Part shown: positions 51,255 through 56,692 of the stretch, in pieces
Layout: every line of letters starts with the position of its first letter
Numbering within the stretch: the first letter of the stretch is position 1
Assembly: GCF_003991155.1 (NCBI RefSeq)
Contig: NZ_CP031293.1
From: Escherichia coli
Lineage (GTDB): Bacteria > Pseudomonadota > Gammaproteobacteria > Enterobacterales > Enterobacteriaceae
Length of the DNA: 64,000 bases
Strand: one strand, 5' to 3'
Notes under the pieces: model-generated
Database searches by the model: none
What the model was told of the DNA's origin: nothing
The model's input: the letters and a program-made list of their open reading frames with translations, nothing else
Translations under genes and position numbers: made by a program

Positions 51255-52103
51255 ATGGCGACATACCTTATTGGCGACGTTCATGGTTGTTACGATGAAC
51301 TGATCGCATTGCTGCATAAAGTAGAATTTACCCCTGGGAAAGATACCCTCTGGCTGACGGGCGATCTGGTCGCGCGCGGCCCGGGTTCGCTGGATGTTCT
51401 GCGCTATGTGAAATCCTTAGGCGACAGCGTACGTCTGGTGCTGGGCAATCACGATCTGCATCTGCTGGCGGTATTTGCCGGGATCAGCCGCAATAAACCG
51501 AAAGATCGCCTGACACCGCTGCTGGAAGCGCCGGATGCCGACGAGCTGCTTAACTGGCTGCGTCGCCAGCCTTTGCTGCAAATCGACGAAGAGAAAAAGC
51601 TGGTGATGGCCCACGCCGGGATCACGCCGCAGTGGGATCTGCAGACCGCCAAAGAGTGCGCGCGCGATGTAGAAGCGGTGCTGTCGAGTGACTCCTATCC
51701 CTTCTTCCTTGATGCCATGTACGGCGATATGCCAAATAACTGGTCACCGGAATTGCGGGGGCTGGGAAGACTGCGTTTTATCACCAACGCCTTTACCCGT
51801 ATGCGTTTTTGCTTCCCGAACGGTCAACTGGATATGTACAGCAAAGAATCGCCGGAAGAGGCCCCTGCCCCACTGAAACCGTGGTTTGCGATTCCTGGCC
51901 CCGTCGCTGAAGAGTACAGCATCGCCTTTGGTCACTGGGCATCGCTGGAGGGCAAAGGTACGCCGGAAGGTATTTACGCGCTGGATACCGGCTGCTGTTG
52001 GGGCGGGACATTAACCTGCCTGCGCTGGGAAGATAAACAGTATTTTGTCCAGCCGTCGAATCGGCATAAAGATATGGGTGAGGGAGAGGCGGCCGCGTCT
52101 TAA
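51255..52103 (+). CDS. apaH: ApaH, diadenosine tetraphosphatase
   Basis: 282-aa [19 protein letters not shown] with GDLVARG / GNHD metallophosphatase motifs. Confidence 0.95.
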
Positions 52104-52127
52104 CGCTTTACCATTCAGGGAGGAATA

Positions 52128-52727
52128 ATGGCTGACTATTTTGAAATACGTGCTGATTACAATCAGCACACCATCACGGTTTATCAGGCTTACAATGATG
52201 CAATCGCTGACGTCGCCGTACGTGACGGGCGATTTGGCGCACCTTTTTCATTCAACCGCATGACCTGGATTAAACCCTCTTTTATGTGGATGATGGAGCG
52301 TAGCAACTGGGGACTGAAAAAAGATCAACAACGCATTCTCGCAATCCGAATCAAACGCACCTTCTTTGATACATTGCTGGAACAAGCGGTGCTAACCACG
52401 CCGGAAGCCCATGTCTATCCACATGCAGGAGTTTGGGAAACGTTATTTGCGCAAGCAAATGTATATGTTCAGTGGGACCCAGAACGCAGCATAAATGGCA
52501 AAAAACTGGAGCACCGATCATTACAGCTTGGTATTTCTCGTAACTTGATCAGTCAATTTAACGAAGACGCCATTGTTGCCATTGATGATCTGACGCCGCT
52601 GGTGCGAAAGTGTCATAACCTTTTGATAAACGGTAAAACAACACAGGCGAAATCCTTCCTGCCGCCAGAAAAAATTTATCCTGTTAGTGCAACTGCAAGA
52701 AAGGCTTGGGGAATGAAAAATTCCTGA
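52128..52727 (+). CDS. Hypothetical protein, 199 aa (uncharacterized; not in the K-12 apaH-folA interval)
   Basis: ORF with AGGGAGGA RBS directly after apaH; conserved-looking block RMTWIKPSFMWMMERSNWG that I recall, uncertainly, as a DUF-type family. Confidence 0.6.
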   Translation: MADYFEIRADYNQHTITVYQAYNDAIADVAVRDGRFGAPFSFNRMTWIKPSFMWMMERSNWGLKKDQQRILAIRIKRTFFDTLLEQAVLTTPEAHVYPHAGVWETLFAQANVYVQWDPERSINGKKLEHRSLQLGISRNLISQFNEDAIVAIDDLTPLVRKCHNLLINGKTTQAKSFLPPEKIYPVSATARKAWGMKNS

Positions 52728-52762
52728 GACAAATACGCGCCTATTAAGCGGAAAATATCTAA

Positions 52763-53212
52763 GTGCGACAAATCAACGCCGGGCTTAATACCAGAGAAAT
52801 TATTCTGGAAATGATTGACGAAGCAGATGACCCCCCGTTTGCTGAGCAGCGAACCTGGCATCGCAGGCGAATCGCTTTTCTTTGTGAGTGCATCAGCGTT
52901 GCTGTCGACTACGGCTTCTTCTGTTCTGTCTCTCAGCAGTCAATAATGAACATAACCAGGATGGCTGAAGATGTATGGATAACAGAAAGTAAAACGACCC
53001 AACTCATTGATATCTGGCAGCAACTTAAGCAGCTTTATCCGCCAGAAACTATTCCCTATACCCAGCAGTTACCCGCTAAAGAATTGCTTGAACTGCTACT
53101 TTCCAGTCCTGACGATCTTCGAATAATTGAAATCCCTGACATCATCGGCGATGTTTTTGATGACCAAACCTGGATTCGATTATTCAAAAAACACTTTGCT
53201 GATGTTATCTAA
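52763..53212 (+). CDS. Hypothetical acidic protein, up to 149 aa (start uncertain: GTG at 52763 or ATG at 52811)
   Basis: Co-directional ORF 35 bp after the 199-aa gene; Asp/Glu-rich C-terminal half; no recognisable homolog. Confidence 0.5.
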   Translation: MRQINAGLNTREIILEMIDEADDPPFAEQRTWHRRRIAFLCECISVAVDYGFFCSVSQQSIMNITRMAEDVWITESKTTQLIDIWQQLKQLYPPETIPYTQQLPAKELLELLLSSPDDLRIIEIPDIIGDVFDDQTWIRLFKKHFADVI

Positions 53213-53528
53213 CTACGATGTGATGTGTAACAATCTAAAATACATCGCCAGACGACAGACCAAAAAGAAAGTATTTAGCAGATACTCAACATTCTGACTT
53301 CTGTACAGAAATAGCAGAGTTTAAAAACTTAAAATTTCCGGTACTCATCAGAGAAACATCCTGTTTCTTCTGCAAGTTCATTTAATGCCGAGATGGCATC
53401 CTCGTTTACTTCAGTCCACTGTAGAGTGGCTTGAGGGTTTAGACCTACGCAATGAGTGCGACTCACAAAATCGCGCTCACTGGTAAAATCAGACGTCTTA
53501 TCGTTCAATTTGTAGTCATAGCAAAAAC

Positions 53529-56054
<2,526 letters not shown>

Positions 56055-56062
<8 letters not shown>

Positions 56063-56585
56063 GATGTGCCTCCTGCCATTCCAGCAGACGTTGCTTATAG
56101 TGCCGCGCCTGCCCTTCGAGGGTTTCGTCGTCACAAATAAAGGTGCAGTGCATGGCAAACGGTGGCAGCCAGTTCAGCCCGCAGTAGATTGCCGTCGCCT
56201 GTAGCGGCTGTGACAGCACATCAAAGCCCGGATGCGCACCAATCTCAAAATGGCTTTCCCCGCCGCCGGTCGTCACCGCCCACAGCAAATGTTTGCCATG
56301 CAGCGCCGTACCGCCGTGACCGTAAGCCCAGCCGTGCGAGAAAACTTTATCGATCCAAAGTTTGAGGAGCGGTGGAATGCTGTACCACTGCATCGGGTGC
56401 TGCCAGACGATCAGATCGGCGCGAGACAGCGCCTCCTGCTCGGCGGCAATATCGATATTGAAGTCAGGATAGAGTTGATAAAGAGAGCGAATTTCGACGC
56501 CTTCCAGCGTCCTTGCCTGTTCAAGCATCCGTTTATTCGCATGGGAATGATGCGGATACGGATGCGCATAAATTATAAGAATCAT
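56055..56585 (-). CDS. kefF: KefF, KefC-activating flavoprotein quinone oxidoreductase
   Basis: 176-aa [21 protein letters not shown]. Confidence 0.95.
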
Positions 56586-56692
56586 AGGTAGCCCGCGTGA
56601 TTACGCCTTTGTTTTCCCACAAAGTGTAGTCATATATTCACGCGGCTTATAGTCAATAATATTGATTCAGAAAAGAGAGAAATCTGAACAAA

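Follow-up and report, generated by a model that had tools for sequence, protein, structure and literature searches.

The question raised by this locus is what occupies the 316 bp that separate the stop codon of a 149-aa hypothetical gene from that of folA, an interval that a first-pass annotation had described as a non-coding tail with short hairpins and a possible micro-ORF. The window, by which we mean the whole stretch of 64,000 nucleotides that was analysed, is E. coli chromosome with the gene order pdxA-rsmA-apaG-apaH … folA-kefC; among the ORFs around the interval, the plus strand carries pdxA, rsmA, apaG and apaH, the minus strand folA, kefC and kefF. The distance from apaH to folA in the window is 1,425 bp, made up of a DUF4291 gene, the 149-aa gene and the 316-bp interval. 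The folA and apaH coding sequences of K-12 are 77 bp apart, a gap that presumably contains a REP-like palindrome. A 1,551-bp query covering window positions 52050..53600 is 100% identical to E. coli 2016C-3878 (NZ_CP029747.1). The features of the region are as follows.

52128..52727, plus strand: DUF4291 gene of the islet (Pfam PF14124, E 1.9e-68).
52763..53212, plus strand: 149-aa hypothetical gene of the islet.
53213..53528: the 316-bp interval between the stop of the 149-aa ORF and the folA stop.
53213..53230, plus strand: 18 nt that belong to the coding sequence of the neighbouring gene in its majority allele (155 aa, C-terminus ...QLRCDV).
53231..53328, unstranded: A+T-rich spacer between the convergent stops, with no detectable ccdB trace, terminator-like site or Rfam match.
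53329..53519, minus strand: ccdA remnant (pseudogene), bounded by the ancestral ATG (53519..53517) and the TAA (53331..53329), as aligned to an intact locus (L002).
53529..54008, minus strand: folA coding sequence.

The extent of the interval, put at about 315 bp in the first-pass annotation, is confirmed, and the statement that it lacks long ORFs is borne out; its longest ORF, which that annotation did not list, is a 59-codon frame with a TTG start at 53329..53508 on the minus strand. The interval is A+T-rich (39.6% G+C vs 52.4% in the window). The window allele of the 149-aa gene carries a premature TAA at 53210..53212 and ends six residues early.

The most probable answer, to which we give a probability of about 0.86, is that the interval is what decay has left of a type II toxin-antitoxin module of the ccdAB type, once inserted in the chromosome at the folA-apaH hot spot of Escherichia. 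Its folA-proximal 191 bp (53329..53519, minus strand) are, judged by alignment, a decayed ccdA antitoxin gene, and about 60% of the interval 53213..53528 is on the same comparison a recognisable, broken ccdA. The term non-coding tail is apt in that the interval probably encodes no functional protein and lies between convergent units, but the interval is not featureless. Two parts of the remnant matter for what follows.

53329..53508, minus strand: surviving remnant ORF, 59 codons from the TTG start; the frame is also annotated in RefSeq from a GTG at 53466.
53332..53421, minus strand: conserved C-terminal segment, QWTEVNEDAISALNELAEETGCFSDEYRKF, the counterpart of the CcdB-binding domain.

The identification as a decayed ccdA is made because of a Pfam CcdA match, a tblastn match to CcdA_O157 and the RefSeq annotation. 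Residues 27-59 of the 59-aa ORF align to positions 39-71 of the 71-position CcdA profile (PF07362) with an E value of 2.3e-8, and the score of 34.7 bits lies above the family's gathering cutoff of 22.4, with only profile positions 39-71 being matched. A tblastn search with CcdA_O157 as the query covers 53484..53332 (E 9e-17) with a 14-residue gap, and the remnant shares 67.5% nucleotide identity with ccdA_O157 over aligned columns. The C-terminal segment QWTEVNEDAISALNELAEETGCFSDEYRKF is collinear with residues 48-77 of CcdA_O157, RWREENTEAIAALNQLADETGCFSDEYRSF, with 21 of the 30 residues identical (70%). RefSeq labels the remnant "type II toxin-antitoxin system CcdA family antitoxin" and annotates it as a 45-aa coding sequence from the GTG (53329..53466) in the matching genome, and as a 59-aa one in others.

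The damage becomes apparent when the window is aligned to an intact ccdAB_O157-type locus (L002; ccdA 77 aa, ccdB 104 aa); many E. coli carry intact ccdA and ccdB at exactly the same position. The lesions, in order from folA, are listed below.

53520..53528, minus strand: the 9 nt left between the folA stop and the ancestral ccdA ATG.
53505..53519, minus strand: ancestral start followed by a premature stop at codon 5 (ATG ACT ACA AAT TGA), by direct reading.
Approximately 53485..53490 (near 53487), minus strand: 1-nt deletion, a frameshift relative to intact ccdA, by alignment.
53422..53423, minus strand: junction of a 42-bp in-frame internal deletion that removed 14 codons, corresponding to CcdA_O157 residues 34-47.

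In the intact locus, 85 bp precede the ccdA ATG and include a Shine-Dalgarno sequence (AGGAG) and palindromes of the GTATAC type; these elements are missing from the window, where 72 alignment columns of the upstream region are gone, and with them the gene's own promoter/operator and ribosome-binding site. No Shine-Dalgarno sequence is recognisable by direct reading before either the TTG or the GTG start of the remnant. In the majority allele, moreover, the ancestral ATG is mutated to AGG. The N-terminal ribbon-helix-helix domain is not intact in frame, leaving profile positions 1-38 unmatched, and the 14-codon deletion sits where the two CcdA domains join. A promoter scan gave no minus-strand promoter-like site in the interval, a negative that is uninformative since the same scan misses the promoter of the intact ccd locus too; the argument that the remnant has no promoter of its own thus rests on absent DNA (9 vs 85 bp) and not on the scan. 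Because there is no space for such a promoter and folA ends 9 nt upstream, the remnant would be transcribed only as a 3' extension of folA.

The toxin gene is missing altogether. Searches of 52000..53700 by tblastn with CcdB_O157 and CcdB_F gave a best E value of 0.5, leaving no detectable trace of ccdB, and the sequence 3' of the remnant's stop has 44% identity to the ccdB region of the intact locus, which is random; immediately downstream of the ccdA remnant, ccdB is thus absent. The remnant nevertheless lies between folA and apaH on the folA strand, as intact ccd genes do. The side that ccdB holds in ccdAB strains is filled in the window by the DUF4291 gene, which, like the 149-aa gene, lies on the strand opposite to the remnant.

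As a separate observation, a 59-aa CcdA_O157 variant (P0030) carries an independent in-frame deletion of 18 codons (…AGLN|TRWREEN…), nearly where the window lost 14. The two deletions suggest a deletion-prone spot between the two CcdA domains.

Selection on the remnant was assessed from pN/pS, with the window set against the other E. coli allele group (about 96% identity), against E. albertii and against E. whittamii. The remnant frame has a pN/pS of 0.44-0.80 (3-5 non-synonymous and 1-3 synonymous changes), values that rest on only 4-8 substitutions per comparison and with which weak constraint is compatible, vs 0.13-0.22 for the DUF4291 gene, 0.15-0.21 for the 149-aa gene and 0.03-0.06 for folA and apaH. 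These ratios point to nearly neutral evolution of the remnant and to purifying selection on the DUF4291 and 149-aa genes. Neither half of the remnant ORF, N- or C-terminal, is richer in variable residues than the other. At the ETGCFSDEY motif of the ORF, E. albertii reads ETECF, without the Gly that all retrieved intact relatives share, and an E. coli variant reads ETGFF, without the Cys. The 59-codon frame is open in most variants from all three species, E. coli, E. albertii and E. whittamii; by our own estimate, an unbroken frame of this length is expected by chance at about 4% divergence with a likelihood of roughly 70%, and its persistence therefore carries little weight either way. The CcdB-binding C-terminal part, which has survived largely intact, is a point against the reading as a relic.

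Some copies have been damaged further. A frameshift variant (P0009) fuses the remnant to the frame of the micro-ORF discussed below. In an E. coli draft assembly (L019, GCA_036602385.1, 1..126), the contig ends inside the remnant in a multicopy sequence with a median of 5 copies per genome, which in complete genomes immediately precedes the transposase gene of IS621 (IS110 family). The insertion point corresponds to window positions ~53445-53447, and the target, …TTTAGACCTAC…, is one that we take to resemble the REP-derived site favoured by IS621. Strain HH45 (L005, NZ_CP116411.1, 1600..2690) carries a much more diverged and fully decayed islet copy (85-88% identity): its DUF4291 gene is in fragments, a frameshift has hit its hypothetical gene, and of the remnant only the 3' ~100 bp (85% identity) are left, abutting folA.

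The two small features singled out in the first-pass annotation fall at least partly within the old coding sequence.

53352..53368, unstranded: 7-bp inverted repeat, within the CcdA codons GAA-ACA-GGA-TGT-TTC (E-T-G-C-F).
53286..53381, minus strand: 31-codon micro-ORF, overlapping the 3' end of ccdA out of frame and extending into the spacer; judged spurious.

The inverted repeat, AGAAACA/TGTTTCT, does exist, with its arms at 53352-53358 and 53362-53368, one base away from where it had been placed. Of 2000 dinucleotide-preserving shuffles of the interval, 308 (15%) contained a perfect inverted repeat with arms of 7 bp or more and a loop of 3-10 nt, and intact ccdA_O157 has a shorter version of the hairpin at the same E-T-G-C-F codons; in the majority allele the innermost pair is lost without compensation. 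The hairpin is A+U-rich and the U-run begins only ~20 nt later, which does not correspond to an intrinsic terminator. The minus-strand ORF, proposed at about 30 codons, is likewise present, has 31 codons and gives exactly the translation reported, yet it does not exceed chance: ATG ORFs of 30 or more codons turn up in 54% of the dinucleotide-preserving shuffles. It has no family match, shows 2 non-synonymous changes vs 1 synonymous change between alleles, and occurs in the databases only as the tail of the frameshifted variant P0009. Hairpin and micro-ORF alike are thus read, from their position and frequency, as incidental by-products of the old coding sequence.

An alternative to decay without function would be that the 45/59-aa ORF, expressed by read-through from folA, acts as an orphan mini-antitoxin that neutralises O157-clade CcdB reaching the cell on incoming DNA or by recombination with ccdAB strains, and so serves in anti-addiction or immunity. 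The 70% identity of the 30 C-terminal residues to CcdA_O157, the ETGCFSDEYRxF end that is kept in the window and the frame that is open in three Escherichia species are in its favour, as is the anti-addiction concept established for chromosomal ccd; the C-terminal half of F-plasmid CcdA alone neutralises CcdB. However, the 9 nt after the folA stop leave no space for a promoter, no Shine-Dalgarno sequence precedes the TTG or GTG, the pN/pS of the frame is 0.44-0.80 with both halves of the ORF equally variable, and the otherwise invariant Gly and the Cys of the motif are substituted in some alleles. In addition, the 14-codon deletion takes the residues just N-terminal to the binding helix, and disrupted variants are in circulation. 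We therefore regard such an orphan antitoxin as quite unlikely. That the promoter-less ccdA frame has been kept and is translated from the folA 3' UTR, thereby immunising islet-carrying Escherichia against O157-type CcdB, is very unlikely on the same sequences; if true, this immunity would account for the open 59-codon frame in three species despite the destroyed module.

The interval might also function as non-coding sequence, holding terminators for folA and the apaH side, as the first-pass annotation had proposed, or a small regulatory RNA, or encoding a translated 31-aa micro-protein. Convergent transcripts must end in or near the interval, the minus strand of the whole interval folds with a z of -2.38 (2 of 100 shuffles are as good), and the 98-116-bp spacer shows fewer differences than the remnant (1.7-2.6% vs 3.7-4.7%), albeit in tiny counts (2-3 vs 7-9). 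However, there is no terminator-like site in 53213..53528 on either strand, so that the proposed terminators find no counterpart there, and the low z of the whole interval is driven by hairpins in the old coding sequence that are not followed by U-tracts. The proposal of a small regulatory element fares no better: a permissive E-value scan of 51500..54500 against Rfam yielded only sub-threshold noise, the best matches in or overlapping the interval being tsr32 (20.2 bits, gathering score 98) and sn2841 (17 bits, gathering score 45), and folding of the spacer is not unusual on either of the two strands (z -1.39 and -0.27). With hairpin and micro-ORF at chance level, the innermost hairpin pair lost uncompensated in the majority allele, and the micro-ORF devoid of a family match and of a synonymous excess, a functional non-coding interval appears very unlikely. 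Overall, the ccdA remnant is most likely a non-functional relic, as far as its sequence and variation can tell.

The reading of the interval as a decayed ccdAB-type module leads to the following scheme for its origin. A ccdAB-type module would have been inserted at the folA-apaH hot spot, of which only ccdA is left and ccdB is gone, the rest of the intergenic region being filled by a two-gene cassette on the opposite strand (the DUF4291 and 149-aa genes). The remnant would derive from a ccdA lineage that diverged deeply from ccdA_O157 while under purifying selection, and its ccdA would have been broken before the islet came to be shared by E. coli, E. albertii and E. whittamii. It would no longer act as antitoxin or autorepressor and would be carried passively; any transcription would come from read-through of folA, whose stop codon lies on the same strand 9 nt before the ancestral ATG. 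The remnant would then drift nearly neutrally, with occasional further damage by frameshift, IS621 insertion or larger deletion.

This islet is present in 536 of 5426 complete E. coli genomes (10%), and ccdAB_O157 is found at the same site in 2022 of the 5426 (37%); the remaining genomes presumably have the short K-12-type folA-apaH region. In line with this, about half of isolates have a REP sequence at folA-apaH according to a secondary report. E. albertii (L008-L011) and E. whittamii (L016) carry the same islet with the same lesions at the same site. Between the window and these two species, the islet gene pS is 0.06-0.14, vs 0.22-0.34 for the flanking folA and apaH, and over 52104..53528 and the adjoining core genes the differences amount to 3-5% in the islet genes and remnant, about 2% in the tail spacer and 6-10% in the core genes, except for two very short junction segments (24 and 9 nt) that diverge more. 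Because the pS of the islet is lower than that of its flanks, the islet with its broken ccdA has probably been exchanged horizontally after the species split, and the pattern indicates inter-species exchange by recombination in the flanks.

The remnant itself does not stem from recent decay of the circulating ccdO157 alleles, whose mutual identity is 95% or more. Compared with ccdA_O157, it has a dS of about 0.9-1.5 and a dN/dS of 0.24-0.30, and these values point to descent from a separate, once-functional ccdA lineage. Among 1.8 billion representative proteins, no intact CcdA closer than the CcdA_O157 clade was found.

Outside Escherichia, the region from apaH to folA in Superficieibacter electus contains genes of the DUF4291 and PRiA4_ORF3 families and a homologue of the hypothetical gene that is full-length (218 aa), so that the DUF4291-hypothetical gene pair recurs at the apaH-folA site; an enterobacterial metagenome contig contains only a 189-aa homologue of the hypothetical gene. 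ccdA or spacer-like sequence is absent from both of these loci, and the spacer 53231..53328 was seen only in Escherichia versions of the islet. Since ccdA and spacer are absent outside Escherichia, the tail would be an Escherichia-specific addition to a pre-existing cassette. Two candidate sources were considered and set aside: for a donor outside Escherichia, a scan of a genome collection gave the cassette at the same site in Superficieibacter, without any ccdA, and for a plasmid origin, a plasmid search returned only E. coli chromosomal-type copies.

In Superficieibacter electus, the PRiA4_ORF3-family gene (L017 3557..4195, minus strand; PF07929, E 3e-47) occupies the folA-adjacent position that the ccdA remnant has in Escherichia. 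Its presence there again suggests that DNA has been inserted repeatedly at the folA-proximal edge.

The neighbouring genes have features of their own. The DUF4291 family has been predicted to adopt an atypical ADP-ribosyltransferase fold (PMC12522546), and scans of the three islet products with PADLOC and NCBIfam gave no hits. The Escherichia 149/155-aa protein lacks a ~40-70-residue N-terminal segment of its homologues from other genera (L012 5001..5570; L017 2800..3456), a segment with two Cys-x2-Cys pairs in a zinc-ribbon-like motif; homology begins at the 'GL' near residue 7.

Copies of the locus also occur on two E. coli resistance plasmids, an IncY plasmid of 69 kb and an IncF/N/R plasmid of 82 kb (L006, NZ_CP072804.1, 4046..5243, and L007, NZ_MG252036.1, 4263..7519), which have captured a chromosomal segment containing folA and the ccdA remnant (window equivalent ~52770..56600). 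In addition to these, one plasmid has a portion of the hypothetical gene and the other has kefC-kefF; the segment is flanked by IS1 and IS26 and adjoins blaTEM-1. Mobilisation of the chromosomal folA may be tied to trimethoprim resistance.

Among known systems, the remnant is closest to ccdO157 of O157:H7, CFT073 and others, which occupies the same folA-apaH site in the same orientation, likewise following folA on that gene's strand, and belongs to the same protein family; the intact proteins nearest to the remnant in the set of 1.8 billion representatives are of the CcdA_O157 type, with 55-61% identity. However, ccdO157 has ccdB, a promoter, an operator and a Shine-Dalgarno sequence, and the remnant has none of these four and is interrupted and internally deleted; with 67.5% nucleotide identity and a dS of about 1, it is not a recent derivative of circulating alleles. 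Secondary sources describe folA-apaH as a plastic region with ccdO157, defective ccd genes or a REP sequence, and ccdO157 as decaying; the decay of chromosomal toxin-antitoxin systems is discussed in the literature.

F-plasmid CcdA belongs to the same Pfam family, and the C-terminal region of the remnant aligns to CcdA_F residues 43-70 (E 0.002), but its identity to the remnant is only 29%, and the F-plasmid CcdA/CcdB system is plasmid-borne, complete and active in post-segregational killing. A chromosomal anti-addiction ccd is exemplified by that of Erwinia chrysanthemi, as outlined by Saavedra De Bast et al. (2008). Like the remnant, Erwinia chrysanthemi-type ccd comprises a CcdA homologue on the chromosome with the potential, in principle, to counteract a related toxin that enters the cell; unlike it, that system is intact and expressed, whereas the remnant in the window has no toxin gene or promoter of its own and a damaged frame.

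A class of folA-apaH regions with a large DNA piece, comprising a ccdA_O157 remnant by folA and ORFs of unknown function towards apaH, was reportedly already distinguished by Mine and colleagues in 2009, and a sub-variant with an insertion sequence in the ccdA remnant is said to have been noted in the same work. On that reported description, the islet in the window belongs to the class and differs in nothing substantive, with the IS621 case matching the sub-variant. What is added here is how frequent the configurations are in 5426 genomes, the occurrence of the islet in E. albertii and E. whittamii as well, a map of the lesions, and the observation that other genera have the DUF4291 cassette at folA-apaH without ccdA.

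Finally, it should be noted that the ccdA remnant is a real, ordinary and reportedly already known relic, for which the correct label is ccdA pseudogene or toxin-antitoxin relic, and neither regulatory spacer nor an intact "CcdA family antitoxin" coding sequence. It represents a textbook case of chromosomal toxin-antitoxin decay after toxin loss at a well-known insertion hot spot, to which two modest additions can be made: the broken remnant appears to have moved between Escherichia species together with the DUF4291 cassette, and it probably comes from a ccdA lineage distinct from ccdO157.
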